Source: Cyanobacteriota bacterium (lineage in GTDB: Bacteria > Cyanobacteriota > Cyanobacteriia > PCC-6307 > Cyanobiaceae). Taken from it: 64,000 nucleotides of DNA. Under the pieces are notes generated by a model. It saw nothing but the letters and a program-made list of their open reading frames with translations. It did not search any database and had not been told where the DNA came from. The stretch covers positions 64,001 to 128,000 of the forward strand of contig JBJOMY010000004.1 of assembly GCA_046052125.1 (NCBI GenBank), given 5' to 3'. A program made the translations under genes and the position numbers. How positions within the stretch are numbered: position 1 is the first letter of the stretch; the number at the start of each line of letters is the position of its first letter. Shown one piece after another: positions 4,954-26,537 of the stretch.

Positions 4954-4964
4954 TCGAGCGCTTC

Positions 4965-5040: not shown

Positions 5041-5102
5041 CGCCGTTTGGGAGATGTGTGAGTGGGCGGGGAGGATGAAGCAGGTGCTGCTGCTCTGTCG
5101 TC

Positions 5103-5831
5103 GTGACCATGGAACTGCAGGGGTTGTTCCCGTTGGCGTTGGCGCGGGTGCAGTTGCGGCTGGATCCGTGGGATCTGGCGTTGCTGATGCAGGAGGTGTT
5201 GGCGCTGCGGGGTGAGGCGGAGGGGAACCCCGAGCCTGGTTGCGCCTGGACCGGCGACATCAATGGGATCTGGCAGCTGCATCGGCTTGAGGCCTTTGCC
5301 TCGATTACGGCCGAGGTGCAACGGCAGGCTTGGCTGTATCTGCAGGAGCTGGGCTTTCAGCCCGGCCAGGTGGCCCTGCACATCCAACGTTCTTGGCCGG
5401 TGGTGAGTGAGGCCGGTCAGTTGGTGGGGCGCCACCATCACCCCAATGCCCACCTCAGTGCCGTGCTCTATCTCAACGGCGATGGCAGCGGGCGCAGTGG
5501 TTGTCTGCGGTTGTTCCCGCCGCGGCAACTGAATGAGTTGGTGCCGGGGTTGGCGGTGGGCCATGGCGGCCCGATCGACACCACCAGTTCAGGCGGCCAG
5601 CGTTGGAATGCCCCTTGGCTTGATGTGGCCCCGCAAGCTGGATTGCTGGTGTTTTTCCCGGCTCAGACCGACCACGCCGTGACGCCAAACGACGACTGCG
5701 ACGATCTGCGCCTCTCCCTTGCCTTTGACCTGGCCCTCACAGCCCCGCTCGCCTCAGCGGATGCCGCGGCCCCGCCGGAGTATCTGGCTCCCCATCCCGC
5801 CCAGTGGAGTGAGGTGCCTGCAGACGGTTAG
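5103..5831 (+). CDS. Putative 2OG-Fe(II) oxygenase (TIGR02466-like)
   Basis: HHHPNAHLSAVLYL, FFPAQTDHAVTPN, RLSLAFD motifs. Confidence 0.8.
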   Translation: MTMELQGLFPLALARVQLRLDPWDLALLMQEVLALRGEAEGNPEPGCAWTGDINGIWQLHRLEAFASITAEVQRQAWLYLQELGFQPGQVALHIQRSWPVVSEAGQLVGRHHHPNAHLSAVLYLNGDGSGRSGCLRLFPPRQLNELVPGLAVGHGGPIDTTSSGGQRWNAPWLDVAPQAGLLVFFPAQTDHAVTPNDDCDDLRLSLAFDLALTAPLASADAAAPPEYLAPHPAQWSEVPADG

Positions 5832-5887
5832 CGGTTCGGCGATCCGGGACAATGAACGGCCACCAGCCCCAGCTGCCGCTGCGCCCC

Positions 5888-6211
5888 ATGAGCGACACCT
5901 TCACCGTTGTCTGTGAGATCAACGGCACCAGCCACAGCTTCAGCTGCAGCCCTGATCAGACCGTGCTGGCCGCCGCCGAAGCCGCCGGGGTGGACCTGCC
6001 CAGTTCCTGTTGCTCCGGTGTGTGCACCACCTGTGCCGCGCGCATTCACGAAGGCACCGTGCACCAGCCGGATGCCATGGGCGTGAAGGCCGAGCTGCAG
6101 GAGCAGGGCTACGCATTGCTCTGTGTGGCCTTCCCGCGCAGTGATCTCAAGCTCACCGCCGGCCAGGAAGATGCCCTCTACGAAGCTCAGTTCGGTCAGT
6201 ACCAGAAGTGA
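5888..6211 (+). CDS. Plant-type [2Fe-2S] ferredoxin (minor, divergent from PetF)
   Basis: SCCSGVCTTC...LLCVAFPRSD; ATG at 5888 preferred over 5852. Confidence 0.93.
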   Translation: MSDTFTVVCEINGTSHSFSCSPDQTVLAAAEAAGVDLPSSCCSGVCTTCAARIHEGTVHQPDAMGVKAELQEQGYALLCVAFPRSDLKLTAGQEDALYEAQFGQYQK

Positions 6212-6417
6212 GCCTTGGCGAGCTGCGCCCCGTGTTGCTGCAGTTGGAGCGCCGGCCCGGTTCCCTGCGCGCACAGGTGGAGTCGGCGTTACTGCACCAC
6301 GGCCAACCTTTGCGCTGGGCGATTACGGCCGTTGATCAATCGGCTGAGGGGCGCTCCCTGCTGCAGATCGAAGCCGTCGTGATCGGCGCGATCGATCCCC
6401 AGAGCAGCGAGGCCTGA
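6208..6417 (+). CDS. Small conserved cyanobacterial protein
   Basis: GQPLRWAITAV motif; overlaps both neighbours (translational coupling). Confidence 0.8.
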   Translation: MSLGELRPVLLQLERRPGSLRAQVESALLHHGQPLRWAITAVDQSAEGRSLLQIEAVVIGAIDPQSSEA

Positions 6418-7478
6418 TGGGATCAGCTGCGCCCTTGCCCACGTTGCTGGTGATCCCCACGGGGATCGGTTGTGCCGTGGGCGGCTTTGCCGGCGATGCG
6501 CTGCCTGCTGCCCGTTTGCTTGCAGCGGCCAGTGATTGCCTGATCACCCATCCCAACGTGATGAATGGGGCAGCGCTCTATTGGAGTGATCCCCGCATTC
6601 ACTACGTGGAGGGCTCGAGCCTCGATCGCTTCGCGGCTGGGGAGCTGCTTCTCCAGCCGGTGCGGCAACAGCGGGTGGGTTTGCTGCTTGATGCCGGCAT
6701 TGAGCCCGAGTTGCGTCAGCGCCACCTACAGGTGGCGGATGGTTGCCGCGCCACGCTCGGCTTGAACATTGGCCCGGTGGTCACCACCGATATGCCCTTG
6801 GAGGTGAGCCTCAGCCTGGGTGCCAGCGGCGTGAGTTGGGGGCAGCTCAGGCGCCCTGATGCCTTGCTGCGGGCGGGGGAGCAGCTCAAGGCGGCCGGCG
6901 CCACCGCCATTGCAGTGGTGGCGCGCTTTCCCGATGACCCTGAGAGCGAAGCATTGGCTGCCTACCGGCAGGGCAGCGGTGTGGATGCCCTGGCCGGCGC
7001 GGAAGCCGTGATCAGCCATCTGCTCAGCCGAGAGCTCGGCTTGCCCTGCGCCCATGCCCCAGCCTTGAGTCCGCTGCCGTTGGATCCCGACCTTGATCCC
7101 CGGGCCGCAGGCGAGGAATTGGGCTTCACCTTCCTGCCGTGTGTGTTGGTGGGGCTGAGTCGAGCTCCTTCTCTGCTGCCGGCAGATGCCCCAGCTGTTG
7201 CAGGTGTTTCTCCCCTCGCAATCGATGCGGTCGGCGCGGTGATCGCCCCGGCTGCTGCGCTGGGGGGCGCGGCGGTGCTGGCCTGCGCTGAGCGCGGTAT
7301 CCCGGTGATTGCTGTCGATAACCCCTGCTTGCTCAACGTCACCGCTGAATCCCTGGGGCTGGAGGCGATTCCCGCCGCCAGCTACAGCGATGCGGCGGGC
7401 TTGGTGTTGGCCCTGCGGGAGGGGATTGCGCCGGCCGCCTTGCGGCGACCGTTGCCCCCGTTGTCGGCGCGGCCCTGA
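6417..7478 (+). CDS. DUF3326 family protein
   Basis: IPTGIGCAVGGFAGDA, ITHPNVMNGA, GVDALAGAEAVISH. Confidence 0.92.
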   Translation: MGSAAPLPTLLVIPTGIGCAVGGFAGDALPAARLLAAASDCLITHPNVMNGAALYWSDPRIHYVEGSSLDRFAAGELLLQPVRQQRVGLLLDAGIEPELRQRHLQVADGCRATLGLNIGPVVTTDMPLEVSLSLGASGVSWGQLRRPDALLRAGEQLKAAGATAIAVVARFPDDPESEALAAYRQGSGVDALAGAEAVISHLLSRELGLPCAHAPALSPLPLDPDLDPRAAGEELGFTFLPCVLVGLSRAPSLLPADAPAVAGVSPLAIDAVGAVIAPAAALGGAAVLACAERGIPVIAVDNPCLLNVTAESLGLEAIPAASYSDAAGLVLALREGIAPAALRRPLPPLSARP

Positions 7479-7915
7479 TGGCGGGTTTCGCGACGGCCGG
7501 ATCGGCACAACAGCCTTGCCCTTGTGGCGGCGGCCCCTACAACCGCTGTTGCCGGCCCCTGCATCGCCAGGAGCGGTTGGCAGACACCGCGGAGCAGCTG
7601 ATGCGTTCTCGTTACAGCGCTTTTGCGCTTGGGGAGATCCAGCACCTGTTGTGCACCCAGCCCTCGGATCAACCCCTCGAGCAGCGGCGCCGCTCCCTGC
7701 AAGCCACCTGCCGCCAGCTCCGCTGGCGCGAGCTGGTGATCGTGGCTGCCGAGGCCGGCGGTGTGGGTGATCTCGAAGGCACCGTGCGCTTCGAGGCCCA
7801 CTACAGCGCCGCGGGTGAGCGAGGTGTGTTGCGGGAGTGCTCCCGGTTCGGCCGCGAGGGCGGCCGGCCCGATGGCGCCTGGCTCTACCTCGAGGCGCTC
7901 GAGCTCAATGACTAA
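7478..7915 (+). CDS. YchJ / SEC-C motif protein
   Basis: CPCGGGPYNRCC, TAEQLMRSRYSAF, GTVRFEAHY, W-Y C-terminus. Confidence 0.9.
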   Translation: MAGFATAGSAQQPCPCGGGPYNRCCRPLHRQERLADTAEQLMRSRYSAFALGEIQHLLCTQPSDQPLEQRRRSLQATCRQLRWRELVIVAAEAGGVGDLEGTVRFEAHYSAAGERGVLRECSRFGREGGRPDGAWLYLEALELND

Positions 7916-8207
7916 GGCTGGAGCAGATTCGCTCCAGCACAGAAGCGCAGCGGGTGCTCGAGCGGGCCATGCACTCACCACTGAGCGTTTCCAGCCACAG
8001 TTCGCCGGTGCTGGCGATGTCGCTCCAGTCGGCCCACACCCGCACGTAGTCGTTCACGCGGCGGCCGGAGCAGGGGCGCTCGATCGCCATCAGGGTGCGC
8101 TGGTCGGGCTGCTCTACCTCGAGGCCGAGCTGCTCCAGCAGCGGCCTGAGCAACTCCCCAGGGGAGCTGGAGTTGTGGAAGGGAACGAGGGCGCGGCAAT
8201 AAGCCAT
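7905..8207 (-). CDS. Hypothetical protein
   Basis: 100-aa ORF filling the gap downstream of ald on the same strand. Confidence 0.65.
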   Translation of the reverse strand: MAYCRALVPFHNSSSPGELLRPLLEQLGLEVEQPDQRTLMAIERPCSGRRVNDYVRVWADWSDIASTGELWLETLSGECMARSSTRCASVLERICSSLSH

Positions 8208-8297
8208 GGCGCTGGCGCGAAAAGGGCCGTGACTTCAACCTATGGATGCAGGCCAGATCGCCATGCGGGCTGCGCGGAATGATTTCCACTTCCCGCA

Positions 8298-9431
8298 TCA
8301 ATGCAGGCAGGCCATGGGATGGCGGGTGGGCAGTCCCAGGGCTTTGGCTACACCTGGATGACAGACGGCTCCGCCCACGGTGTTGAGGCCAGACACCAGT
8401 TCAGGCCTTTCCGTGACCGCCTCCACCAGACCCCTTCCGGCCACCGCCAGCACGTAGGGCAGGGTGACACTCACGAGCGCTTCGGTGGAGGTGAACGGCA
8501 CCGCGCCGGGCATGTTGCCCACGGCGTAGTGCTGCACCCCGTGGATCGTGACCACCGGATTGGTGTGGGTGGTTTCGCGGCTGGTGGCGATGCAGCCCCC
8601 TTGATCGATCGCTACATCCACGATCACCGAGCCCGGTTGCATGCGGCTCACCAGCTCCTCCTCCACCAGGGTCGGCGCTCGATCGCCAGGCAACAGCACC
8701 GCACCGATCAACAGGTCAGCGCTCGGGACCAGCCGCTCCAGCAGTCCGCGACTGCTCACCAAGCTCACGAGTCGGCCCTGCCGCTGGCTTTCCAACCGGC
8801 GGAGCCGTTCGGGGGAGAGGTCGAGCAGGAATACCTCCGCATCCATCGCCGCCGCCAGGCGGGCGGCATTCCAACCCACGCTTCCCGCTCCTAGCACTAC
8901 CACCCGTGCCGGTCGAACCCCAGTGCAACCGCCGATCAATACGCCACGGCCGCCATGGGGTTGCTCCAACAAGTGGGCGCCCACTTGAGCCGCCAAGCGC
9001 CCGGCGATCTCACTCATCGGTGCCAACAGCGGCAGACTGCCATCGGCGAGTTGCACGGTTTCGTAGGCGATCGAGGTAGTGCCGGCCTTCAGCAGCGCCT
9101 CCCCAACGGCCGGGTAGGCCGCCAGATGCAGGTAGGTGAACAGCACCAGATCTGGGCGCAAATAGCCGAACTCTTCGGCCTGCGGTTCCTTCACCTTCAC
9201 CACCAGATGAGCGGCCCAGGCATCTGAGCGGTTCACCAAGGTTGCGCCGGCGGCCTCGAAGGCGTCGTCGCTGATGCCAGCGCCCTGCCCCGCCCCCTGT
9301 TCGATCCGCACCTGTAGGCCATGGCTCACCAGCTCGCGCACCGCATCGGGCGTGAGCGCCACACGCCGCTCATCGGGCTTGATCTCCCGCGGCACGCCGA
9401 TGCTGGCGATCGGGGCGATGGAGCCGGCCAT
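8298..9431 (-). CDS. ald: Alanine dehydrogenase
   Basis: GVPREIKPDERRVALTP, KVKEP, FTYLHLAA, PMSEIAGR, DVAIDQGGC. Confidence 0.97.
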   Translation of the reverse strand: MAGSIAPIASIGVPREIKPDERRVALTPDAVRELVSHGLQVRIEQGAGQGAGISDDAFEAAGATLVNRSDAWAAHLVVKVKEPQAEEFGYLRPDLVLFTYLHLAAYPAVGEALLKAGTTSIAYETVQLADGSLPLLAPMSEIAGRLAAQVGAHLLEQPHGGRGVLIGGCTGVRPARVVVLGAGSVGWNAARLAAAMDAEVFLLDLSPERLRRLESQRQGRLVSLVSSRGLLERLVPSADLLIGAVLLPGDRAPTLVEEELVSRMQPGSVIVDVAIDQGGCIATSRETTHTNPVVTIHGVQHYAVGNMPGAVPFTSTEALVSVTLPYVLAVAGRGLVEAVTERPELVSGLNTVGGAVCHPGVAKALGLPTRHPMACLH

Positions 9432-9500
9432 GGGGCGCGAGCGGGGCTGATCAGCCTTCAGCTTGGCGCTGGCAATGGGGGTTGGCTACCTGCCGTGCGC

Positions 9501-11204
9501 TCAGCGTGCAGCGATGGGCATCCGCCAGCCGCTGCCGAAGGAGCGTTTGCTGAGCTTCAGCACCGGCGGCGCCTGGCGGCGTTTGAATTCCGCCCGCCGC
9601 AGCAGCCCCATCACCCGCTCGGCCAAGGCCGCATCCACGCCGTTGTGGATGAGGTCTTCAGGGCTTTGATGCTCCTCTAAAAGTGCCTGCAGCAGGGGAT
9701 CCAACACCGCGTAATCCGGGAGTGAATCGCTGTCGCGTTGATCCGGCCGCAGCTCAGCGCTTGGGGGTTTCTCGCGAATCGCCGCGCCCACCAGCTCCCC
9801 CTCACTCGGCAGCCCCAGGCTGCGGCGGCATGCGGCCGAAGCCGGCGCATCGATCCAGGCACACAGGCGAAACACCGTGGTCTTGTAGAGGTCGCCGATC
9901 ACGGCCAGCCCGCCGTTCATGTCGCCATAGAGGGTGCAGTAGCCGACTGCCAGCTCTGATTTGTTGCCCGTGGAGAGGAGCAGTTGGCCCTGCTCGTTGG
10001 CCACCGCCATCAGTAGCGTGCCGCGGATGCGTGATTGCAGGTTTTCGGCCGTTAATCCCGTTGGTCCGCCGTTGAGCGGAGCGGCGAGGGCGGTATCGAA
10101 GGTTGCCATCAGCGGCTCGATCGGCACCGTTTCGGTGGCGATGCCCAGCCGCTTGGCGAGGGCAAGGGAGTCGTTGATCGAGCCCTCCGAGCTCCAGGGT
10201 GACGGCATCAGCAGCGCCTGCACGTTGTTCGGCCCCAGGGCAGCCGCAGCAATCACGGCCACGAGGGCTGAATCAATGCCGCCGCTCAGCCCCAGGAGGG
10301 CTTGCTGAAAACCGCATTTGCGGGCGTAGTCGCGCACCCCCAAAACCAGGGAGCGCAGGAGCAGCTCCTCGGTGCCGGGCAGGCTCAGGTCCTTGGCAGT
10401 TGATTGCTCCGGGGCTTTGGCCGTCGTGCTGATCTCCCAGACGCCGAGATCTGCGGCGGCAAAGGCCAACTGGCAGACCACATCCCCTGCGGCGCTCGTG
10501 ATGAAGCTGCCACCGTCGAACACCAGTTCGTCGTTGCCGCCCACTTGGTTCACGTACACCACCGGGCAGTGGAGCCGTTTAGCGGCGGCGGCGGCCAACT
10601 CACGGCGCAGCTGCGCTTTGCCTTGCCCGAAGGGAGAGGCCGAGAGGTTGAGCAGCAGATCGGGTTGCAGCGCCTGCAGATCCGCCACCGGGTCGCCGCC
10701 GAGCAGCCGCTGTTCATGCAGCTCCTCTTCCACCCACAGGTCTTCGCAGAGGGTGAGGCCGAGCCGCCAAGGGCGGCCGTCGCCCTCCAGCTCCAGCAGA
10801 CAGGCTTGATCGGCAGGGCGGAAGTACCGCCGCTCATCAAACACGTCGTAGCTGGGCAGCAGGCGCTTGCGCGCCACCACACGCCACTGGCCGCCCTCCA
10901 CGAGCGCGGCGCTGTTGAACAGATCGGGTTGCTGGCCGTCGCTCACCGTTTCGCTGATGCCCAGCACCAGGGCCAGCCCTTCCGGCAGTTCAGCCGCCAG
11001 CTGATCGAGCACCTGCTGCTGGCGTTCGCGCAGGGCTGGCCGCAGCAGCAGGTCGCGGGGTGGGTATCCCCAGAGCGCCAGCTCCGGTGCCACCACCAGG
11101 CTGGCGGCCTCGGCAGCCGCACGCCGGCAGGCGTCGAGCAGCAGATCACCATTGCCTGCCAGGTCGCCCACCACGGGATTGATCTGGGCGAGGGCAAGAC
11201 GCAT
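9501..11204 (-). CDS. nadE: Glutamine-dependent NAD+ synthetase
   Basis: N-terminal CN-hydrolase domain plus SGGIDS, ENLQSRIRG, GNKSE, PPSAELRPDQ. Confidence 0.97.
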   Translation of the reverse strand: MRLALAQINPVVGDLAGNGDLLLDACRRAAAEAASLVVAPELALWGYPPRDLLLRPALRERQQQVLDQLAAELPEGLALVLGISETVSDGQQPDLFNSAALVEGGQWRVVARKRLLPSYDVFDERRYFRPADQACLLELEGDGRPWRLGLTLCEDLWVEEELHEQRLLGGDPVADLQALQPDLLLNLSASPFGQGKAQLRRELAAAAAKRLHCPVVYVNQVGGNDELVFDGGSFITSAAGDVVCQLAFAAADLGVWEISTTAKAPEQSTAKDLSLPGTEELLLRSLVLGVRDYARKCGFQQALLGLSGGIDSALVAVIAAAALGPNNVQALLMPSPWSSEGSINDSLALAKRLGIATETVPIEPLMATFDTALAAPLNGGPTGLTAENLQSRIRGTLLMAVANEQGQLLLSTGNKSELAVGYCTLYGDMNGGLAVIGDLYKTTVFRLCAWIDAPASAACRRSLGLPSEGELVGAAIREKPPSAELRPDQRDSDSLPDYAVLDPLLQALLEEHQSPEDLIHNGVDAALAERVMGLLRRAEFKRRQAPPVLKLSKRSFGSGWRMPIAAR

Positions 11205-11797
11205 CAGCGGGGCGTGCGGGAGGGCTCTTGCCCCAGGCCGTAGAGATTGTGCTTGACCAGTTCGGCCCAGAGCGCGGCTGGCACCTGTTCGGGGCTCGGG
11301 TGGCGGCGGATCGCTGAACTGGCGGTGGCGGGTACCGGCAGGTGCACCAGTTCTATCTGGCCCCCCAGCGCTTCGATCGTTGCCAGGGCCTTGGGATCCA
11401 GCGGGAATCCCTGGCGGGGCACCACCGCCAGCCGGCAGTGCTGCAACAGCTCCGCCGCTCGATACCAGCTGGGCACTTGAGCGGCCAGATCACCCCCCAC
11501 CACGAACACCAACGCGTGGCCGGGCCAGAGCTCGGCGGCGCGGGTCACGGTGTCCAGGGCGCGGGGGCTGCTGAGCGCCTGGCGATGGTGGATGCGCGGA
11601 TCAGCGAGGTCTTGCACCAGCGCCTCGAGCAGCTGGGCGCGCACGGCCAGGGGAGCACCGTGCTGTTTCAAGGGGTTGTCACTGGCCCAGGTCACCACCT
11701 GGCCGTAGTGCTCTGCTAATCCCGCCAGCAGGGCGCGATGTCCTTCGGTGGGCGGATCGGCACTGGTGCCCAGCAGCGCCAGGGTGGGCTGGCTCAT
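11204..11797 (-). CDS. nadD: Nicotinate-nucleotide adenylyltransferase
   Basis: LGTSADPPTEGH (cyanobacterial HxGH variant), SDNPLK, ASSAIR; ATGA overlap at 11794-11797. Confidence 0.93.
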   Translation of the reverse strand: MSQPTLALLGTSADPPTEGHRALLAGLAEHYGQVVTWASDNPLKQHGAPLAVRAQLLEALVQDLADPRIHHRQALSSPRALDTVTRAAELWPGHALVFVVGGDLAAQVPSWYRAAELLQHCRLAVVPRQGFPLDPKALATIEALGGQIELVHLPVPATASSAIRRHPSPEQVPAALWAELVKHNLYGLGQEPSRTPR

Positions 11798-15329: not shown

Positions 15330-15812
<483 letters not shown>

Positions 15813-15840
15813 TCGCGCGAGCAAGGCACATCGTCGCTCT

Positions 15841-15867
15841 GAGCTCCCTCACGGGAGCTTTTTTATT
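15841..15867 (+). terminator. Rho-independent terminator of ycf65
   Basis: GAGCTCCC-TCAC-GGGAGCTT followed by T tract. Confidence 0.85.
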
Positions 15868-15901
15868 GGTCGCATAGGCTTTGTGGCACTGCGCTGCGGC
15901 G

Positions 15902-16876
15902 CTACTGCCGCCCCCGCATCACCTGGCCGAAGCTGCTGCCGGTGATCAGGGCGGGGTTGGTGGCGGTGTCAACGGTGAAGCTGCGGGATTCGCTCTGGCT
16001 GGTGCCGTCGGGGTACACAAAGGTCACCAACCCCTCCAGGGTCACAACGGAACCGTTGCGGCCCGTTTCCTGGAGTTGGTCCACGCTGACCCGTTGAAAC
16101 TGGCGGAAGAAGGCCGGATCGAACTGGTCGGCTGCTTCGCCGCTGAACCGTTGGCGAGCCGCCTGTATGTTGCCCATCGAGAGCTCGTTGTAGAGCTGCT
16201 CCACGCTGCTCACCGCTTGGGCGCCTGCCGTATCGGTGCTCCCGAGTCCGAGCTCCGGGGCTGGTGGGGTCTCTGTTCTGGGGGCCTGTGGCTCGGGTGT
16301 TGCGGTGGTGCCGTTCAGCCCAGGGAAGCCAGTGTTGCTCGGACCGGCCGTGGGTTGATTGGTTTGAAGCAGCAGCCAGGCCAGGCCGCCGCCCACGCCC
16401 ACCACCAACACACCGGCGATGAAGCTGAGCACCGCCACCAAACCGCCGCTGCCGTTTCCTTCCTGCGCCGGTTCTGAGTCGTCGTCCTGGTCTTGAGCGG
16501 GAAGAGGAGCTGCGGGCGGTTCGGGGCTTGCGGCAGCCGTGGGTGGTTGGATCCGGCTTGTTTCGCTGAGCCCGAGCAGGCCTCTCAGCACCGCATCCAT
16601 GCGTTCGCAGATTGGTGCCGCGAACACCTGGTTGAGTTCCTGCTGCAACCGCAATTGCAGCCGTTGATCGGCAGCCAAGGGTGGCTGCTGGGCCGTCGCG
16701 CTGCTGAAGGCTGGTGTCATCACCAGGTATTTGAGGGCTGGCAGCAGGGCCAGCTGGCTGTTGCCGCAGAAGTCGCCCACGAGGGCCTGCAGCCGGCGCC
16801 CATCACTCGCCAGGCCCCGCTCCAGGTCAGCCAGGATCTGCCGGCGCAGGTTGGCTCCGAGGTCGTAATCGTTCAC
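15902..16876 (-). CDS. Single-pass membrane protein: ~100-aa helical N-domain, Pro-rich linker, TM helix, C-terminal possibly NTF2-like domain
   Basis: GTG at 16876 overlaps the PP2C stop (GTGA); TM LVAVLSFIAGVLVVGVGGGLAWLLL; C-terminal helix-helix-beta pattern. Confidence 0.8.
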   Translation of the reverse strand: MNDYDLGANLRRQILADLERGLASDGRRLQALVGDFCGNSQLALLPALKYLVMTPAFSSATAQQPPLAADQRLQLRLQQELNQVFAAPICERMDAVLRGLLGLSETSRIQPPTAAASPEPPAAPLPAQDQDDDSEPAQEGNGSGGLVAVLSFIAGVLVVGVGGGLAWLLLQTNQPTAGPSNTGFPGLNGTTATPEPQAPRTETPPAPELGLGSTDTAGAQAVSSVEQLYNELSMGNIQAARQRFSGEAADQFDPAFFRQFQRVSVDQLQETGRNGSVVTLEGLVTFVYPDGTSQSESRSFTVDTATNPALITGSSFGQVMRGRQ

Positions 16877-18099
16877 GGCTTCACAGGCGCAGCGCCAGGC
16901 GTTGCAGGTGCAGGCATCTTGCCCTTTGTTGGCGGTTGGGGTGAGCGGGCCAGCTGCCATTGCAGGGCCAGTTCCTGGCGCAGCCTTGGGCAGCTCTTTA
17001 GCGAGTCTGATGGGCTGGCGGCAATCAGGGCCCCCAGGGGATCGATGGCCACGCGCTCGCGGAGCAGCGCCGCGGCTTGGGGCTGTTCCAGCAGTTGTCT
17101 GAACTGGGCTCGGCGTTGGCTGAGGCTTGAGCGGATCTGCTCGGGTTGGCCGCAAAGCGCCTGCACCTGAGCCTCCAGAGGTGAGGGGCGGCGCAGCACA
17201 AGCCAGCTTCCCAGGCCCAGCAGGCCGCCGAGCACCAGCAGAACGGCGATGGGGCCGGCGTGTCGCCAGCCCATCCCTGGGCGGGAGGGGCGCTCCTCAG
17301 GGCCGTTCGCCAGGGAGCAGATCGCCAGTGAGACGTCGTCGCCACTGCCGTCTCGGGTGATCTGTGCCAGTCCCCGTTCCAGCTCGGCGCTGTCCTCCAG
17401 ATCCACCACCCCGGCGCAGAGGGCCAGGAAGTCGACATCGGTGGCGCAGGATTTGCGCACCCCATCGGTGCTCAGCACCAGGGCCCGCAGCGTCTGGTTC
17501 GCCTCCAGTAGCTGCAGCTGGGCGCGCGGCTGCCAGCACTGCTGATCCGGCGCTTGGCAGAGGCTGCCAGTGGCCTCACTACCGCTGTGCTCTGTCTCCT
17601 CGCTGAGGAGCCAGGCTTGCCCCTGCCCATCCACGCCGGCGAGATCCCAGTCGCCGATGCCGCTGCAGGCCCACCAGCGCGGCGCCAGTAGGGCCAACCC
17701 CAGGGTGCTGCCGTAGCTGAGAGCGGAAAACGGTTGCACGCTGGCCTCGGGGCGCTGCTGCCAGTCGGCTTCGATCGCTTGCAGCCATTGGGCCTGGATG
17801 CGGGCTGGTAGATCGCTGTTCAGTCGTTGCCGCCAGCGCTCCGCCTGGTTCAGGGGCGTGTCCTTCAGCAGGTCGCTCACCACCTGCTGCGCCACGGCGC
17901 AGGCCAGGGCGCTGCCCCGGTGGCTCAGGTGGTAACGGCTGCCGCCGTGGCCATCGGCCACGGCCATCAGTTGCAGGCTGTCGTTCCCCGAGTGGAGGGT
18001 GATGCCGAGGCTGGCGTCCTGGCAGGGTTTGTTCTGGCGCTGGTGGGCAGCACCGATCACACTGCACACCCGCGCCGGCCGCCAGTTGCCGCTCACCAC
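16873..18099 (-). CDS. PP2C-family Ser/Thr phosphatase (TerY-P type) with C-terminal TM and extracytoplasmic domain
   Basis: SVIGAAHQRQNKPCQDA, AVADGHGG, IGD, STDGV, GSGDDVS; TM IAVLLVLGGLLGLGSWLVL. Confidence 0.92.
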   Translation of the reverse strand: MVSGNWRPARVCSVIGAAHQRQNKPCQDASLGITLHSGNDSLQLMAVADGHGGSRYHLSHRGSALACAVAQQVVSDLLKDTPLNQAERWRQRLNSDLPARIQAQWLQAIEADWQQRPEASVQPFSALSYGSTLGLALLAPRWWACSGIGDWDLAGVDGQGQAWLLSEETEHSGSEATGSLCQAPDQQCWQPRAQLQLLEANQTLRALVLSTDGVRKSCATDVDFLALCAGVVDLEDSAELERGLAQITRDGSGDDVSLAICSLANGPEERPSRPGMGWRHAGPIAVLLVLGGLLGLGSWLVLRRPSPLEAQVQALCGQPEQIRSSLSQRRAQFRQLLEQPQAAALLRERVAIDPLGALIAASPSDSLKSCPRLRQELALQWQLARSPQPPTKGKMPAPATPGAAPVKP

Positions 18100-18836
18100 A
18101 CCAGCGGGCCGACGTCATCGCTCGGATCCAGCAGGGTGGGAGGAAGATCCGGCAGGTGGATGTTGCTGCCGCTTTCTGGGCTGGGTTCTCCCGCCGGTGC
18201 CACGCGGCTGGCCGGCATGGATGCCGCACCCACCACGGCCGTGGAGGCCCACTGGATGTATTGCGCCAGGGTGGTGGCGTTACTGGCCTGCAGCGGCCGC
18301 CGTGGCGATTTGCTGCGCCCGCTTGGTTCCGGGCCGATGAACTGCTGCAGCACCTCCAGATCCGCGTCATGGCCCATGGCGATCGCCAGGCGCACCGCCT
18401 TTTGGGCCCAGGGACGGCGCATCAGGTTCGCCAGGCCCGCTTCGAAGTCGTCGGTGGGTTGGCCATCGGAGATCAGCACCAGCACCGGTGGGAGCGCCCG
18501 CTCTTCCATGGGCGGCGACTGCAGCGCCTCGGCCACGAGGTTCAGCGCATCGCCCATGGCGGTGATGCCTCCGGCCTCGAGGTCGCGCCACTGCAGCTGC
18601 TGCACTGGTGTGGGCTCCGCCAGGTGCCAGGCCGCCTGATCGGCAAAGCGCACGGCCCGCACCAGCACGCGCGCCTCAGGGTTTTCGCGGGCCACCTCAG
18701 CCATGCCCGGCAGCGACTGGCGGATGGCCTGATTCAGCGCCTGCATCTTCCCCTGGGCGGCCATCGAGCCGGAGCAGTCGCAGAGATAGATGAAGTGCAG
18801 CGGCCGGTTGCTGAGCCGAACGTTGGGGAAGGCCAT
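18093..18836 (-). CDS. terY: vWA-domain protein, TerY family
   Basis: MIDAS DCSGSM, GGITAMG, LISDGQPTD; lies between kinase and PP2C. Confidence 0.88.
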   Translation of the reverse strand: MAFPNVRLSNRPLHFIYLCDCSGSMAAQGKMQALNQAIRQSLPGMAEVARENPEARVLVRAVRFADQAAWHLAEPTPVQQLQWRDLEAGGITAMGDALNLVAEALQSPPMEERALPPVLVLISDGQPTDDFEAGLANLMRRPWAQKAVRLAIAMGHDADLEVLQQFIGPEPSGRSKSPRRPLQASNATTLAQYIQWASTAVVGAASMPASRVAPAGEPSPESGSNIHLPDLPPTLLDPSDDVGPLVW

Positions 18837-18839
18837 GGC

Positions 18840-20174
18840 TTAGGGGCGCAGCACCAGGATGGGCCCGGCGCTGCTGTTGAGCTGCTGCAGGGCCGAGAGA
18901 TTACAGGTTTTGCCTGGGGCCAGCTCGATGTGCTGCCCTGTGCGTGTCGATCCGTGCCAGGTGCTGGAGGTGAGGTTCTGCAAGCCCAGCAGGCTCGGAT
19001 CGCTGGGATGAGCCACCAGCCTGGCGAGCGGCGTTGCGATCGCCTCCCCCAGCAGCGGATCGAAGTGGTGGGGGTGCAGTTCGTTGCCGGCCGCCGCCGT
19101 GACCCGCCCGTGGGGCAGCTGCAGCTGCAGCGCTGCCGGTAGCGGAGTGCCGCAGCTCCAGCAGCTCCCTGGGCCCTCGGGGTTGGGAAAGGTTTCCTGG
19201 CCGCAGTGGCCGCACAGTTGCCGTTGATCGAGGCAGTGGCTGATCGCCTGCTTCCACTGGCCGGTGAGGGTGCGCTGCTCCGGGTTGCGCAGGCCGGGCC
19301 CGAAGCTCTGCACAAACAGCCGTTGCAGCGCTTCGGGGTAGATCGGCCAGGTGATCAGCGCTGCACTGTGCTCGATCGGATCGGGCCGGTTGGCGGGGTT
19401 GTGGGGATCGAAGATGAACAGCGCCCCTTCTCCGTAGATCCGGCGGCGGGCTGGTTCATCCAGGCAGCGAATCGCCAGTTCTCGCTGGCCGCGAAACGGA
19501 TCGTGGCGCGTCAGCAGCCGGAAGAGCAGCACCGCCAGGGAGAACAAATCGCTGCCGGTGCTCGGTCTGGCCTGGCCGAGCAGCACCTCCGGAGCCATGA
19601 ATCCAGGGGTGCCGAGCACGCTTCCCTGGCCCTGCCCGTCGATATCCACGTTGTCGTTGTCGCAGATCAGGATGCGGCCGCTGCTGTGCTCGAGGAACAG
19701 GTTGCCTAAGGAAATGTCCTTGTAGCAAAGGCCTTTGAGGTGCAGCTGGTGGAAGGCTTCCGCCAGGTGAAAGCAAGCCCGCAGCACGCTCTGCAGGCTG
19801 ATCTCCAGCTCACCGCCAGCGTGCTGATGGGCACCCACGAAGCCGCCGGGCCGCAGGCCCATCAGGTAGCCGAAGCCCGTTTGAGGGCCCTGAATGAGGC
19901 GCTGGCTGTCGGCGCTGGCTGAAAGCACCGCCAGCGGCCAGAGGAAATCGGCGTTCGGTGCCCCCAGGCGAATGCTCTGCTGCAGCCTTGAGCGCAGCTG
20001 CGGATCCCTGGCGATGCACGCCGGGAAGTACCACTTCAAGGCCAGTCGCTCGCCCGCCAGCTTCACCGCATACACCTGGCCCTGGCTGCCTCCTCCGAGG
20101 CCCTGCTCAATCAGCAGTGGCTGCTCCAGGCCTTCGAACTGCAGGCTTGAGCCTTCCGGGAGCAACCAGTTCAT
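18840..20174 (-). CDS. Ser/Thr protein kinase (TerY-P type) with Zn ribbon and C-terminal beta domain
   Basis: GGGSQGQVY, ALKWY, CYKDISLGN, CDNDN, GTPGFMAPE, SDLFSLAV; CGHC...CWSC. Confidence 0.93.
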   Translation of the reverse strand: MNWLLPEGSSLQFEGLEQPLLIEQGLGGGSQGQVYAVKLAGERLALKWYFPACIARDPQLRSRLQQSIRLGAPNADFLWPLAVLSASADSQRLIQGPQTGFGYLMGLRPGGFVGAHQHAGGELEISLQSVLRACFHLAEAFHQLHLKGLCYKDISLGNLFLEHSSGRILICDNDNVDIDGQGQGSVLGTPGFMAPEVLLGQARPSTGSDLFSLAVLLFRLLTRHDPFRGQRELAIRCLDEPARRRIYGEGALFIFDPHNPANRPDPIEHSAALITWPIYPEALQRLFVQSFGPGLRNPEQRTLTGQWKQAISHCLDQRQLCGHCGQETFPNPEGPGSCWSCGTPLPAALQLQLPHGRVTAAAGNELHPHHFDPLLGEAIATPLARLVAHPSDPSLLGLQNLTSSTWHGSTRTGQHIELAPGKTCNLSALQQLNSSAGPILVLRP

Positions 20175-20890
20175 GCCGGGGCGGTGCTGTCCTGGCCGAT
20201 GGCCTGACGGATGCCATTGCGATGCGCGAGGGCCGTGCGGCGGTTGGCGAAGCCATGGCGGAGGGCACGGCCATCACGCAGCACCAACACCAAGTTGTGC
20301 TCCTTGCGGGAGCCCAGCAGGATCCAGCCAGCCAGGGCTCCCGCCTGTAGCGGCCAGAACAGCAGCGGGAACGGCAGTAGCAAGAGGCCACCCAGGCAGA
20401 GCAGCAGCCACCAACTGAAGATGTGGGGATGCTGAGGCAGGCTTTGCACGGCCGCCGAGCGGATCTCGGCGATGGCCACTTGGCGCTCGCCCACGCTGAT
20501 GCTGCGCGGAGCGCTGGCTGAAGGAGGCGCGCTCGCGCGGGGCGCCTGGCTTGGCTTGGGAGCAGCTGGCTCAGGGCTGGCGCTGCACTCGAACACCAGC
20601 ACCGGACCGTTGCGCCCCAGCCGAATCTCATCGCCATCCTCGAGCCGGCGGCACTGACGGACTTGCTTGCCCTCGAGGAAGGTGCCATCGCTGCTCTGCC
20701 AGTCGCACACCAGCCAGCCCTGGCTGCGCGAGAAGCGCACCACGGCGTGGTGATCGGAGACCCCCTCGAGGCTGGCCAGGCAGAGGCGGTTGGCCGCAGC
20801 GCGCCCGATCGTGAGCGGCTGAGCCGGATCCAGCGGTGCCACCTTGCGGCGATCGCTGGCCAGCAGGAGCCGGGCGCTCGGGCTGCTCAT
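20171..20890 (-). CDS. FHA-domain membrane protein
   Basis: LTIGR...VSDHHA...SSDGTF FHA signature; Pro/Ala linker; hydrophobic hairpin near the C-terminus. Confidence 0.9.
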   Translation of the reverse strand: MSSPSARLLLASDRRKVAPLDPAQPLTIGRAAANRLCLASLEGVSDHHAVVRFSRSQGWLVCDWQSSDGTFLEGKQVRQCRRLEDGDEIRLGRNGPVLVFECSASPEPAAPKPSQAPRASAPPSASAPRSISVGERQVAIAEIRSAAVQSLPQHPHIFSWWLLLCLGGLLLLPFPLLFWPLQAGALAGWILLGSRKEHNLVLVLRDGRALRHGFANRRTALAHRNGIRQAIGQDSTAPA

Positions 20891-21162
20891 GGTTCACCCC
20901 GGCGGCGGCGCCACCACAGGCGCCAGTCGTCGCGGAGGTCGTTCCACCAGCCGCCATCACCCTCGCGGTAGGGCACCACACGGCCAGGAAAGAGCAGCGC
21001 TTTGCTGGCTAGGGCCAATGCAATGAGCACCATCACCAGCAGCACCCAGCCAGGGATGGCCCCCACCCAGGTGGCGGCGAAGAACGCCCGAATTGCATAC
21101 AGCCCGATCGTTAACGCCAGCCACAGCCGGAAGGGTTCCCAGGGGTCCCGCTGGCGCAGCAA
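20887..21162 (-). CDS. Small two-TM membrane protein
   Basis: Two hydrophobic segments, basic W/R-rich tail; stop overlaps the FHA gene ATG (ATGA). Confidence 0.7.
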   Translation of the reverse strand: MLRQRDPWEPFRLWLALTIGLYAIRAFFAATWVGAIPGWVLLVMVLIALALASKALLFPGRVVPYREGDGGWWNDLRDDWRLWWRRRRGEP

Positions 21163-21251
21163 CGATCCGCTTGAAGGCTGGCCGTAGCCTATGGCCGGGC
21201 TGCAACACCCGCCTGGTTACCCCTTCTCAGCTCGAATACCTGAAGGCGCGC

Positions 21252-23483
21252 TTGGCCTCGGAGGAGGTGCGTCAGGCCTGGCGTGCGTTGGCCAAGGCGG
21301 CGCTGCAAGGACCCTGGCGGCAGCGGCCAGCGGCCATCACCCAGGCCTGGCAACCGCTGCGCGCCCATCAGGCCAGCGTGGAGCTCTGGGCCGGCGGCCA
21401 GAAGCTCACCGAGCTGGCGCTCGAACCCCAGCGCTACAGGCTGGGCCGCGATCCTTCCTGCGATTTGCCCCTGGCGGAAGCCGGCTTGAGCCGTGTGCAC
21501 GCCATCCTCGAGAAGCAGCGCCCGAGCGATCGCGAGTTCGCGCTCGAAGATTTCAACTCCGCCAATGGGCTGTTCCACCGTGACCGCCGGATTCGCTGGA
21601 TTCAGCTCCGCGATGGCGATGCGGTGCGACTGGGCTCTCCCCTCAAGGGCGAGGCACCGGAGCTGCGCTATCGCCACCCCCGCAGCCCGCTGGAGCAGGC
21701 GGTGCATCTATTGGGTGTTGCAGCCCTAGCTGGATCCACGCTGTTGGTGAGCGGCATGCTCGTGGCGGCGAGCATCGGCGGCGGTTCGAAGATCCGCTCC
21801 ATCTCGGGCCCGGTGAAGATCTTTTCGGCCGACCGCCGCCAGATCGATGCCAAAGAGGGATCCTCTACGGCTCTTCCCTCGCTGCAGTCGTATCCCCTGC
21901 ATCTGCGCCAGGCGCTGATGGCTTCCGAGGAAGCTCGCTTTGGCTGGAACAGCGGCATCGATCTGTTTGGCACGCTGCGCTCAGCTCTGCTGGGTACAGG
22001 CGGCGGCAGTGGCCTCACTCAACAGGTGGCCCGGATGGTGTATCCGGAGGTGGGTCGAGATCTGAGCCTCACGCGCAAGTTGCGGGAGCTTTGGGTGGCG
22101 CTGCAGCTGGAGGTGGGCTTCAGCAAAAACCGGATCCTCAAGCTTTACCTCGATCGCGCTTACCTCGGCCTGGGCAGTGAGGGGTTTGAGCAGGCCTCGC
22201 AGCTGTATTTCCGCAAATCAGCCAGCGATCTCGATGTGGGTCAGGCGGCGTTTCTCGTGGGCCTGCTGCCCAGTCCCAATGGCTACAGCCCCTGCAATCC
22301 AGAGGATCCCGGCGCCGGCCTGGAACGGCGCAATCTGGTGCTCAAGCTGATGCATGAGCAGGGTTGGCTCAGCGATCAGGCCCTGATCGATGCGCAGCGG
22401 CGCCCACTCAACATCGATCCCTCAGCCTGCCGCGAATCCACCTTCAGCAGCTATCCCTTCTTCAGTGATTACGTGCTGGGGGAGCTCGAAGGCACACGCT
22501 TTGGGCTTGATCTCAGCAGTGCTGATGCCGATGGCAATTACGCCGTGGTCAGCACGATCAACCCCCGCTTGCAGCAGCTGGCGCAGGATCAGCTCAAGCG
22601 CTTTCTCGAAGGGCCAGCCGCTGCAGCCGGGTTGAGCCAGGGAGCCCTGATCACGGTGAACACCGAAACCGGCGACATCGTGGCCTACGTGGGTGGGGGC
22701 GACTACAGCCGCTCCAGCTTTGATCGGGTGCAGGCGCTCCGCCAACCCGGCTCCACGTTCAAGCTCTTCCCCTATCTGGCGGCCTTGGCGGCCGGGGCCT
22801 CACCCGCTGATCCGATCTCCTGTGCGCCGCTGGCCTATGTCGCGGGTTGCCGTCACGGCGGCGGCAGCACCTCCATGGCGGATGGCCTGGCCTTCTCGGA
22901 AAACGTGGTGGCCTTGCGCTTGGCGGAGCGGGCCGGGTTCTCAGCGGTGCTCAAGATGGCGCGTCGCCTCGGCATCTCCACACCGCTGGACGCCGACTAC
23001 AACACCATGCTGGGTGGGCGCGAAACCTATCTCTACGAGCTGGCCCGGGCCTACGCGGTGGTGGCCAACGGCGGCCGTTCCGTGCCGATGCACGGTGTCA
23101 GCCGGATCTACGACCTGGGGATCTGTGGCTCGATCAAAAGCCTGGAGACCTGCCCGGAGCGTGGCGTAACCGTGCCGATTGGCGAGCAGTCGCGCCAGCT
23201 GATCAGCCCAGAGGTGGCGGCCAGCATGGATGAGCTGCTCGCTGGGGTGGTGCAGCGCGGCACAGGCCGTGCCGCAGCCCTGGTGCCCGATGCCCGCGGT
23301 AAGACCGGCACCACCAACAACGGCGTGGATGTGTTGTTTGTGGGCTACTCCCCAGCCAGCAAACTGCTCACGGCGATCTGGATGGGCAACGACGACAACA
23401 CTCCGGCTCAGGCCGCCAGTGGCGCTTTGGTGGCTGATTTGTGGGGGCGTTACATGCAGCAGGCCCCTACAGCAGCTCCTTGA
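21252..23483 (+). CDS. Class A penicillin-binding protein with N-terminal FHA domain (start uncertain: CTG 21213 / TTG 21252 / GTG 21267; frame open from 21093)
   Basis: FHA LGR..SRVHA..SANG; TM; transglycosylase SEEARF, GSGLTQQ, RKLRE; transpeptidase STFK, SEN, KTGT. Confidence 0.93.
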   Translation: MASEEVRQAWRALAKAALQGPWRQRPAAITQAWQPLRAHQASVELWAGGQKLTELALEPQRYRLGRDPSCDLPLAEAGLSRVHAILEKQRPSDREFALEDFNSANGLFHRDRRIRWIQLRDGDAVRLGSPLKGEAPELRYRHPRSPLEQAVHLLGVAALAGSTLLVSGMLVAASIGGGSKIRSISGPVKIFSADRRQIDAKEGSSTALPSLQSYPLHLRQALMASEEARFGWNSGIDLFGTLRSALLGTGGGSGLTQQVARMVYPEVGRDLSLTRKLRELWVALQLEVGFSKNRILKLYLDRAYLGLGSEGFEQASQLYFRKSASDLDVGQAAFLVGLLPSPNGYSPCNPEDPGAGLERRNLVLKLMHEQGWLSDQALIDAQRRPLNIDPSACRESTFSSYPFFSDYVLGELEGTRFGLDLSSADADGNYAVVSTINPRLQQLAQDQLKRFLEGPAAAAGLSQGALITVNTETGDIVAYVGGGDYSRSSFDRVQALRQPGSTFKLFPYLAALAAGASPADPISCAPLAYVAGCRHGGGSTSMADGLAFSENVVALRLAERAGFSAVLKMARRLGISTPLDADYNTMLGGRETYLYELARAYAVVANGGRSVPMHGVSRIYDLGICGSIKSLETCPERGVTVPIGEQSRQLISPEVAASMDELLAGVVQRGTGRAAALVPDARGKTGTTNNGVDVLFVGYSPASKLLTAIWMGNDDNTPAQAASGALVADLWGRYMQQAPTAAP

Positions 23484-24582
23484 TCCTGGTGACCAGGGCC
23501 CAACCCAGTCCGAGCAGCAGACCCCACCCCCAGCAGCTGCTCAGCAGCCGTTGCCACGGGGTGGTTGGCTCCTGCGGATCGAGCCGCGGCAGTTGCCATC
23601 CCAGTTGCAGCGCCCCGTAGACCAGCAGCAGCACCCAGGCTGGGATTTCCAGCCCAACGCTCTCGAAGCTGAACGCACGCCAGTGCAGCAGGCTCAACCC
23701 CGCCGCCAGGGCGATCAAGGCGCTGATCGCTCCCGATGCACCACTCCAGACCCGCAGGACGCCCCAACGACTGGCGCCCAGGGCGGCCAGTCCAAGGCAG
23801 GCCAGGGCTGTGAGGCTGTAGCGCAGGATCACGGCGCCCAGCGGCAGGGGTGAGTTGCCCAGCAGGATGAGCAACAGCGTCAGGTTGAGGCTGGCTTCAA
23901 GCCCATTGCGGTGGATCCAGGCCTGGCTCAGCCATTGCCAGGCCTGGCGCGGCAGGCCGGCTTCATCGCTTGCCAGGGGCCAATGGCGCTTCAGTTGTTT
24001 CAGCGGCCCCAACGCCAGGGCTTGAATCAACCCCAGAACAACCACCAGCACCACCCCACCGCTCCAGCCCCAGGCGTCGAACAGGGCTCGATCCAGCTCG
24101 GTGCCGCTCCAGGCGAACACCAGAGCGCCTGCCGCCGCTAAGGCGATACCAGGTGCGAACAGCTCCAGATCCCTGCGGATGCTCCGGGAGCGCTTGGCTG
24201 CGGCACGAGCAGAAACCGCTTCAGCGGCGCTGGCCGGCTCAGGCTCTGGTTCGGTTGGAGGCTTTGAGGGTTGGGCGCCGCCGCTCTGCCCCGTGGCGGC
24301 TTGCAGCAGATCGAGGAGCTCGTGCAGTACCGCCGGGGAGTAGGTGTTGCTGAGTTGGCTCGTGAGGCTGGCCAAGGCCGATTGCTGCGTGGCTCCCTGG
24401 CTGTGGAGTGCTTGCAGCAGCAGAGGCTGAGCCGCTAGATCGCGGATGGGCCCCCGCAGGCTGTCGTTGGCCCCGAGCGCATCCATTAGCCGGTTGGTGA
24501 GGGCCCGCGATTGACGCAGGCTGCTGGCATCCGCCACCAGCCATTGGCGCACCTGTTCCCCCAGTTCGTGGCCGACGCCCAT
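23467..24582 (-). CDS. Rhomboid-like membrane protein with N-terminal helical domain; probably catalytically inactive
   Basis: WQWLSQAWIH...N, GASGAI motif, several TMs; no His in the expected last catalytic helix. Confidence 0.75.
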   Translation of the reverse strand: MGVGHELGEQVRQWLVADASSLRQSRALTNRLMDALGANDSLRGPIRDLAAQPLLLQALHSQGATQQSALASLTSQLSNTYSPAVLHELLDLLQAATGQSGGAQPSKPPTEPEPEPASAAEAVSARAAAKRSRSIRRDLELFAPGIALAAAGALVFAWSGTELDRALFDAWGWSGGVVLVVVLGLIQALALGPLKQLKRHWPLASDEAGLPRQAWQWLSQAWIHRNGLEASLNLTLLLILLGNSPLPLGAVILRYSLTALACLGLAALGASRWGVLRVWSGASGAISALIALAAGLSLLHWRAFSFESVGLEIPAWVLLLVYGALQLGWQLPRLDPQEPTTPWQRLLSSCWGWGLLLGLGWALVTRIKELL

Positions 24583-24607
24583 TCGTGCCTTCTCGCAGGC
24601 TCACACT

Positions 24608-24634
24608 AAAAAAGCGCCCCACAAGGGGCGCTTT
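24608..24634 (-). terminator. Rho-independent terminator of the beta-epsilon operon
   Basis: AAAAAA-GCGCCCC-ACAA-GGGGCGC on the + strand. Confidence 0.85.
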
Positions 24635-24655
24635 GAATCAGGAATCAGATGTGGT

Positions 24656-25060
24656 TCAGGCCTTGCTGGCTTGCACGCGAGCGCGAGCGCGGGCGAGTTC
24701 CTGCTGAGCCTTGATTTTTTCGGTGCTGGAGGGCTGACCCTCGAACTTGGCGAGAGCAGCGGTTGCGGCATCCAACTCCTTGCTGGCGGCCTCAGCGTTG
24801 ATGCTGCTGCCTAGTTCGGCAGCATTCACCAACACGGTGACTTCATCGGCGTCGACTTCAGCGAAGCCTGCCTGGAGGGCAATGGCTTTCCAGCCGTTGC
24901 CTTCACGCACCCGCAGCACACCGAAATCAAGGGCGGTGAGCAGGGAAACGTGACCGGGAAGGATCCCGAGCTGACCAGTGGTGCTGGGCAGGATCACTTC
25001 GTCGGCGGTGCCGTCGAAAACGCTCTGGTCAGGCGCCAGAACGCGAAGGGTGAGAGACAT
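24656..25060 (-). CDS. atpC: ATP synthase F1 epsilon subunit
   Basis: LPSTTGQLGILPGH, GFAEV, RARARV. Confidence 0.98.
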   Translation of the reverse strand: MSLTLRVLAPDQSVFDGTADEVILPSTTGQLGILPGHVSLLTALDFGVLRVREGNGWKAIALQAGFAEVDADEVTVLVNAAELGSSINAEAASKELDAATAALAKFEGQPSSTEKIKAQQELARARARVQASKA

Positions 25061-25076
25061 CGGTTAAGCCTCCGGA

Positions 25077-26537
<1,461 letters not shown>

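Follow-up and report, generated by a model that had tools for sequence, protein, structure and literature searches.

TerY-P triads are widespread, and to our knowledge the targets on which they act are not known. In the actinobacterial cell-wall phospho-signalling cluster, the genes are fhaA-fhaB-pstP-rodA-pbpA-pknA-pknB, and Rv1747 is an FHA-FHA-ABC exporter. ArnA (FHA) and ArnB (vWA) of Sulfolobus form a phospho-dependent module under the control of Ser/Thr kinases and a phosphatase. Effector-associated (Death-like) adaptor domains are small helical domains found in prokaryotic conflict systems. As far as the portions of the sources available to us go, the TerY-P triad is described as a phosphorylation switch that is thought to be metal-sensing, and related TerY-P-like triads act as stand-alone anti-phage systems (PMC11090510, PMC7699616). 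In the same portions of the TerY-P literature we found no description of a shared client domain. We analyzed a 64,000-nucleotide stretch of a Cyanobiaceae genome (contig JBJOMY010000004.1 of assembly GCA_046052125.1, positions 64,001 to 128,000; hereafter the window). Its region 15902-24582 is an island of seven genes, as defined by the translations of open reading frames (ORFs) and by Pfam. The two outermost, which we call genes A and B, both encode at their N-terminus a homologous domain of ~100 residues (N-domain) that has not been described before, and the genes between them resemble a TerY-P-type switch. The TerY-P triad itself is already known; new are the lineage-restricted candidate client domain and the peptidoglycan synthase on such a switch.

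With the published triad the island shares a vWA protein with an intact DxSxS metal-ion-dependent adhesion site (MIDAS), a PP2C phosphatase and a kinase followed by a CxxC-x13-CxxC pattern (PMC11090510, in the part available to us). In contrast to it, the island triad stands together with two FHA proteins, a class A penicillin-binding protein (PBP) and N-domain membrane proteins and not with genes for DNA restriction or processing, and the PADLOC TerY model scores only 17 bits. With the actinobacterial cluster it has in common that kinase, PP2C and FHA readers are combined with a peptidoglycan synthase. However, the island has a vWA protein and a kinase that is predicted to be soluble and carries a zinc ribbon, its PBP is itself an FHA fusion, and the N-domain family has no counterpart in the actinobacterial cluster. 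ArnA/ArnB likewise bring vWA and FHA proteins together with a Ser/Thr kinase and a phosphatase, but this system is archaeal, soluble and transcription-related, and it has no membrane client family.

Gene A starts with a GTG codon at 16876 that overlaps the PP2C stop codon, and its homologues begin with M-N-D-[YH] at the equivalent position; gene B starts with ATG at 24582. The coordinates and reading frames that the original prediction, made from the letters of the window alone, had given for both genes are correct. The two genes divide as follows.

16565..16876, minus strand: gene A, shared N-terminal domain, residues 1-104 (homology; predicted structure with a confidence score, pLDDT, of 93.8 and six helices)
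16445..16564, minus strand: gene A, Pro/Ala/Asp-rich linker, residues 105-144 (translation; family linker statistics)
16367..16444, minus strand: gene A, single predicted transmembrane (TM) helix, about residues 145-170 (hydrophobic stretch)
15902..16366, minus strand: gene A, putative extracytoplasmic part, stop codon included (conserved C-terminal domain at about residues 219-324)
24283..24582, minus strand: gene B, shared N-terminal domain, residues 1-100 (homology; predicted structure with pLDDT 87-94 and six helices)
24181..24282, minus strand: gene B, Pro/Glu/Ala-rich linker, residues 101-134, predicted to be disordered (pLDDT below 50 at residues 101-129)
23467..24180, minus strand: gene B, predicted rhomboid-fold membrane domain, stop codon included (Pfam Rhomboid, 22.1 bits; Foldseek)

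It had been proposed from an alignment by eye that both proteins share an N-terminal domain of ~100 residues. Such a likeness might arise by chance or from composition alone, given two Leu/Ala/Gln-rich helical N-termini, and the direct comparisons would agree with this. In BLASTP, A against B was not significant (best E 0.68 over 14 residues), and hhalign of the two N-termini, each represented by 120 close homologues only, gave P 0.02 and a probability of 2%. Family-only hidden Markov models (HMMs) of A and B showed no cross-match; each recovered only its own gene among the 24,457 six-frame ORFs of the genome.

Each N-terminus alone was then searched against about 400 genomes of the order. The A query matched in 57/401 genomes and the B query in 94/401, and both single-sequence queries independently hit identical ORFs in G213, G315, G392 and G386 (per-genome E 1e-8 to 3e-3). 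The B-only HMM found nine intermediate ORFs among 1,114 (E 4e-10 to 7.5e-4), and B-only and A-only HMMs matched the same residues of the intermediates in the same order. Because the intermediate loci had been picked with the A query, only the matches of the B HMM count as an independent test. Once the profiles were enriched with intermediates, hhalign of the A clade against the B clade became significant, with P 8.8e-5 over 94 columns (4-102 versus 5-98), and the alignments to the intermediates gave P 2.5e-16 for A and 8e-20 for B. None of 150 column-shuffled B profiles reached the A-versus-B score of 29.6 (best control 21.1), and reversed-target controls stayed at P 0.07-0.13.

An HMM built from 20 intermediate domains of other genomes recovered gene B with E 3.4e-14 and gene A with E 2.7e-9 among all ORFs of their own genome, where the next match had E 0.16; this genome holds exactly two copies of the domain. 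Because an HMM made of intermediates only recovers just these two ORFs, we conclude that A and B are truly homologous in their N-terminal domains. This result, the hhalign values and the shuffled controls contradict chance similarity, the helix pattern is the same in both proteins, and both genes share their presence and absence across genomes, which leaves a chance likeness hardly credible. The motifs recognized by eye, LG, D..G, LxxPL and a terminal G, coincide with nearly invariant columns (G7, D35, L44, L51, L77) of a 49-sequence alignment. Also as anticipated, a Pro-rich linker, one or more TM segments and then unrelated C-termini follow the domain in both proteins.

The domain was expected to be helical, and the predicted structures agree. 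AlphaFold2 (AF2) modelled the A domain from the 49-sequence whole-family alignment with a mean pLDDT of 93.8 and a predicted TM-score (pTM) of 0.85, and placed helices at residues 3-19, 26-36, 39-51, 55-62, 71-84 and 87-101. Full-length B, modelled from an alignment of the B family only, has pLDDT 87-94 at residues 1-100 with the same succession of helices, followed by a disordered linker at residues 101-129 (pLDDT below 50) and a helical membrane domain. Laid on the sequence alignment, the predicted secondary-structure state is identical at 85/99 aligned positions of A and B. Conserved columns of the domain are mostly Leu, Gly and Asp.

The original prediction saw no known family in this domain, and our searches bear this out. 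Pfam has no family on the domain in A, B, 14 intermediates and 150 representatives, NCBIfam gave no match below E 0.0019 in 49 members, and the profile search of PDB sequences ended at a best E of 0.86. With the domain model, Foldseek reached a best E of 2.0 against PDB and 1.8 against the viral structures of BFVD. VIA gave no match to the domain, PADLOC models matched neither gene A nor gene B, and a Protein Atlas search with the domain returned only unnamed cyanobacterial clusters. In the literature we found no description of this domain, nor of this island in cyanobacteria. The domain is therefore undescribed and has no detectable relative in Pfam, NCBIfam and the PDB and structure libraries searched. 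It resembles Death-like adaptors in being helical, ~100 residues long with six predicted helices, and common to otherwise unrelated proteins of one locus. Unlike them, it usually precedes a membrane anchor and occurs in an island that has no NTPase core, and no sequence or fold match to them was found in the PDB profile and Foldseek searches.

To describe the family more widely, we searched a profile of 14 domains against 1.84 billion proteins. At E<=1e-3 the profile recovered 523 representatives of clusters formed at 50% identity; with the cut-off at E<=1e-10 the number is 277. Database names of members read 'hypothetical protein' or follow the C-terminal part (rhomboid protease, TPR), and of ten clusters looked at, one had a named member organism, Synechococcus lacustris. 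Across a phylum-wide sample, the domain profile matched in 4/29 genomes of the window's own family and in 0/371 genomes of other families. As far as sampled, the family is hence restricted to picocyanobacteria. By the database names of close homologues, the organism of the window itself falls among picocyanobacteria of the Cyanobium/Vulcanococcus type.

Layout statistics refer to the best 150 of the 523 cluster representatives. The domain starts within the first 40 residues in 149/150 of them; 126/150 have at least one predicted TM segment after the domain and 116/150 exactly one, and the 24/150 proteins without a TM segment are mostly short and may be fragments. Linkers have a median length of 52 amino acids and contain 16% Pro, 16% Ala, 12% Ser and 6% Thr, with at least one Thr in 114/126. 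Lys and Arg together number 1.9 in the 15 residues that precede the TM segment, against 1.2 beyond it. The domain is N-terminal without a signal peptide, and the Lys/Arg bias before the TM segment fits a cytoplasmic N-terminus; we therefore infer that the domain is located in the cytoplasm. Any Pfam family was present in only 12/150 representatives and always downstream of the domain (TPR 5, ARC6-like IMS 3, and FtsH_ext, DUF805, GUN4 and Rhomboid 1 each); the other 138 had none. As expected, the domain is thus attached to a variety of membrane proteins among these representatives. A search for fused forms among longer proteins gave only A- and B-type proteins in the best 120. Single-linkage clustering of the C-terminal parts yielded one cluster of 93, which probably formed via low-complexity linkers, and was not used.

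For the outer part of gene A there was no Pfam match at E<=1, and its C-terminal domain is conserved in 339 homologues. A relationship of this domain to ARC6-like IMS was considered and dropped (hhalign P 0.45). Gene B scored 22.1 bits with Pfam Rhomboid, at a cut-off of 22.6. Its modelled membrane part matched GlpG in Foldseek with probability 1.00 over ~200 columns (TMt 0.60-0.68), with iRhoms lower in the list, so the model assigns a rhomboid fold to it. GlpG has an N-terminal cytoplasmic domain, and gene B resembles it in the fold of the membrane part and in having an extra N-terminal domain; the N-domain of gene B is, however, unrelated to anything found in PDB. Also in contrast to GlpG, the GxSG serine is not retained throughout. 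Ser283 is present in the window protein, and of 121 relatives, 75 keep Ser at this position and 44 have Ala. These relatives conserve H224 and N233, and their last two helices contain no conserved His. W351 presumably sits where the catalytic His would be, a placement that we take from the motifs of GlpG and not from a structural alignment. Gene B is probably a pseudoprotease, i.e., judged from its residues it would have no protease activity.

We compared 396 genomes of the order, which as relatives are not independent of each other, for the domain and the vWA gene of the island. The domain was present in 100/396 and the vWA gene in 97/396, and all vWA-positive genomes also had the domain (97/97). 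The vWA gene was not matched in three domain-positive genomes, whose assemblies consist of 110 to 320 contigs. Both features vary together within six genera; counted as genomes with the domain and with the vWA gene, respectively, we found 17/18 and 17/18 in genus g1, 52/63 and 50/63 in g10, 11/11 and 11/11 in g17, 13/24 and 12/24 in g20, 2/2 and 2/2 in g28, 2/33 and 2/33 in g8, 1/2 and 1/2 in g6, 1/6 and 1/6 in g12, and 0/111 and 0/111 in g4. Distances were counted for the 150 domain matches listed, with 19 further matches left out. Of these copies, 122 share a contig with the vWA gene at a distance of 1.5-7.8 kb and 3 share its contig at a long distance; 22 are found on other contigs, and the genomes of the last 3 gave no vWA match.

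Genome G098, of the same genus and 100% complete, has neither the domain nor the vWA gene, and its PSRP-3 gene lies ~0.5 kb from atpC. Since the two flanking genes adjoin there, everything from A to B is absent as a single unit. A and B are the two ends of one presence/absence block, and gene B is therefore tied to the operon. This bears out the proposal that the shared domain links the separately transcribed rhomboid-like gene to it, as does the presence of the domain in every vWA-positive genome. The domain is a near-obligate companion of the block.

Gene order in other genomes shows how N-domain genes are placed within the block. A-type genes follow PP2C there as well. In genus g20, a third type, consisting of the domain, a TM helix and a long coiled coil, stands directly after the FHA-PBP gene in 5/5 loci. 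In G089, B, PBP, the operon, A and a further type stand in one row. Most of genus g10 has the rhomboid type only, and several genomes have two to six domain copies.

This distribution bears on another explanation, in which the domain is a lineage-specific module for self-association or folding that forms homo- or hetero-oligomers of A, B and their relatives. It would make no direct contact with the core, and the linkage would reflect a shared pathway only. Several observations would agree with such a module. Hydrophobic residues dominate its conserved positions, the best 150 representatives and the best 120 longer proteins include no fusion to a signalling domain, and in several genomes two to six copies are available for pairing. 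On the other hand, many genomes are single-copy, as in most of g10 with its rhomboid type alone. Moreover, the co-occurrence without exception in vWA-positive genomes, together with the immediate adjacency to PP2C and FHA genes, is tighter than a loose pathway link. We consider a pure self-association module improbable.

The genes between A and B are the following.

16873..18099, minus strand: putative PP2C phosphatase with a C-terminal TM segment (PF13672, E 5e-28)
18093..18836, minus strand: TerY-like vWA protein with MIDAS residues D20-x-S22-x-S24 (Pfam VWA)
18840..20174, minus strand: predicted soluble Ser/Thr kinase with a CxxC-x13-CxxC zinc ribbon (Pkinase, E 8e-16)
20171..20890, minus strand: FHA protein with C-terminal TM segments (FHA, E 1e-14; resembles FhaB/FipA)
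21093..23483, true start uncertain, plus strand: class A PBP with a predicted N-terminal cytoplasmic FHA domain (FHA, Transgly and Transpeptidase; PBP_1a_fam)

The minus-strand genes for the FHA-TM protein, kinase, vWA protein, PP2C and gene A have overlapping or nearly abutting ends. The FHA-fused PBP is divergent from this operon, and gene B is convergent with the PBP gene. Housekeeping genes flank the island, with PSRP-3 at one end and atpC, atpD and GroEL at the opposite end.

The vWA protein matched Pfam VWA with E 2e-6, and its MIDAS residues D20, S22 and S24 are invariant in nine sequences; the match of the PADLOC TerY model was marginal (E 7e-4). PP2C is its operon neighbour, and this gene order is the same in other genomes. 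In the kinase, C321, C324, C338 and C341 of the CxxC-x13-CxxC pattern are invariant, zinc-ribbon Pfam matches were marginal (E 0.08-0.2), and there is no TM segment. Its C-terminal ~100 residues (340-444; 18843-19157, minus strand) are conserved in relatives and matched no Pfam family. Both FHA domains of the island score best against the mycobacterial FhaB/FipA model. By these sequence features, the core fits a TerY-P-type triad (vWA, PP2C and a zinc-ribbon kinase) to which two FHA proteins are added; one of the two is also a class A PBP. We regard it as a candidate phospho-switch because it fits the triad description in the available part of PMC11090510.

The original prediction had taken the domain for a cytoplasmic adaptor or kinase-substrate module, comparable to the effector-associated domains of conflict systems; such a role is putative. 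We propose that the N-domain of the membrane proteins would be a common docking handle onto the soluble kinase/vWA/PP2C core. The docked membrane proteins would be interchangeable, i.e., the outer domain of gene A and the rhomboid-fold pseudoprotease here, and coiled-coil, TPR and GUN4 types elsewhere. They may act in two ways. As sensor subunits, they would relay signals from the envelope to the kinase, which itself lacks a TM segment. As clients, they would be phosphorylated on the Thr-containing linker beside the docked domain, and the phosphorylated linker would be read by the FHA domains of the PBP and of the FHA-TM protein, which would tune peptidoglycan synthesis. We favour the link to FHA reading because domain genes repeatedly stand directly after genes for FHA-fused membrane proteins, and the PBP, together with peptidoglycan genes close to other copies, points to control of the cell wall. 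Our favoured reading, to which we give about an even chance, is a docking handle in the cytoplasm through which exchangeable membrane proteins would be coupled to the phospho-switch, with phosphorylation of the linker. A more specific form, to which we hold only tentatively, would make the N-domain a dedicated plug for exchangeable membrane modules, with the soluble kinase working as a split receptor kinase and the FHA-fused peptidoglycan synthase as its output.

Several observations weigh against a docking handle. Inside the domain there is no conserved Ser or Thr in the 49-sequence alignment. No fusion of the domain to a kinase, FHA, vWA or PP2C domain was found among the best 150 representatives and the best 120 longer proteins. 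The cytoplasmic placement is drawn from sequence features only, and the A model was built with the joint family alignment and is hence not independent of B. Finally, 25/150 listed copies lie on another contig or far from the vWA gene, and some of these stray copies stand beside unrelated genes (COP23, trypsin-like peptidases, integrases, a TIR gene).

The block might instead be an anti-phage conflict system of the TerY-P type. The N-domain would then be an effector-associated handle, and the membrane proteins would act as effectors, damaging or remodelling the envelope after the kinase switch has fired. TerY-P-like triads do work as stand-alone defence systems according to the portions available of PMC7699616 and PMC11090510, and the triad features are present in the island. 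The block is also patchy within genera (g10 52/63, g20 13/24, g8 2/33, and G098 without it). G213 holds a tandem array of five to six diversified N-domain genes, one of them broken, and some copies elsewhere lie beside integrase and resolvase or TIR and vWA genes. However, the gene order is the same in several genera, and here the block sits between the housekeeping genes PSRP-3 and atpC. The island holds a full class A PBP, and other copies stand beside MurF-Alr and NlpC/P60 genes. Furthermore, the PADLOC match of TerY is marginal, no other island protein matched a specific defence model (the kinase hit generic kinase models only), and the island has no nuclease or other classical effector. 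Judged by gene context, with the class A PBP here and Mur ligase and NlpC/P60 genes close to other copies, envelope signalling is at least as well indicated as a conflict system. We consider a defence role unlikely and keep docking of the membrane proteins as the favoured reading.

Picocyanobacteria are important primary producers in fresh and brackish waters. The island offers a candidate route from Ser/Thr phosphorylation to cell-wall synthesis in these organisms. The triad always comes with at least one member of the domain family and lies beside an FHA-fused class A PBP, which gives concrete candidate partners. If the plug reading holds, a TerY-P triad would for the first time have a defined client family and a defined physiological output. 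The analysis also adds a domain family of ~500 clusters whose members have no informative name in the sources, and a rhomboid-fold protein that is probably a pseudoprotease.

Some loci in other genomes deserve description of their own. In G213 (C4:134000-150000, positions 4645-11318 of locus L032), five or six tandem N-domain genes with differing outer domains lie downstream of PP2C. One of the A-type copies is broken, with its parts in two frames (ORFs 8944-9567 and 9571-10275), and the whole looks like a diversifying cassette array. In G043 (locus L080, 1768-5398), an N-domain gene lies 26 bases downstream of an FHA-FHA-ABC transporter gene, far from the main block and with an rve integrase gene nearby; the gene directly upstream thus shares the FHA-FHA-ABC layout of Rv1747. 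The same FHA-FHA-ABC-associated type of N-domain protein is found in G128 (L091). Further stray copies (L079, L081, L086, L082, L092) occupy diverse settings. Some stand beside COP23 and several trypsin-like peptidase genes, one copy lies between a MurF-Alr fusion gene and an NlpC/P60 gene, another is placed between phage-integrase and resolvase genes, and a weak match, fused to an SRP54 M-domain-like part, has TIR and vWA genes as neighbours. In L089 (G022, genus g8) and L090 (G005, genus g6), the block contains a short PP2C of ~270 amino acids without a TM extension. In G005 the FHA-TM gene was not found with the query used, and an N-domain gene is still present.

Within 15700-25200 of the window, a promoter scan found no sigma-70-like promoter. 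Metatranscriptome contigs from four runs cover parts of A and B at a depth of 3-9, compared with hundreds for PSRP-3 and atpC. One of these contigs spans the junction of PP2C and gene A; as carry-over of DNA is possible, we do not take these coverages as evidence of expression or co-transcription. Upstream of gene B lies one further feature.

24611..24634, minus strand: terminator-like hairpin between atpC and gene B (10-bp stem with 7 G-C pairs, T-run)

This hairpin is strong and only ~30 bases ahead of the gene B start codon, and contig depth in the RNA library of run X2 falls across it from ~1400 to ~8. For its expression, gene B may rely on read-through, or on a promoter that lies within atpC.

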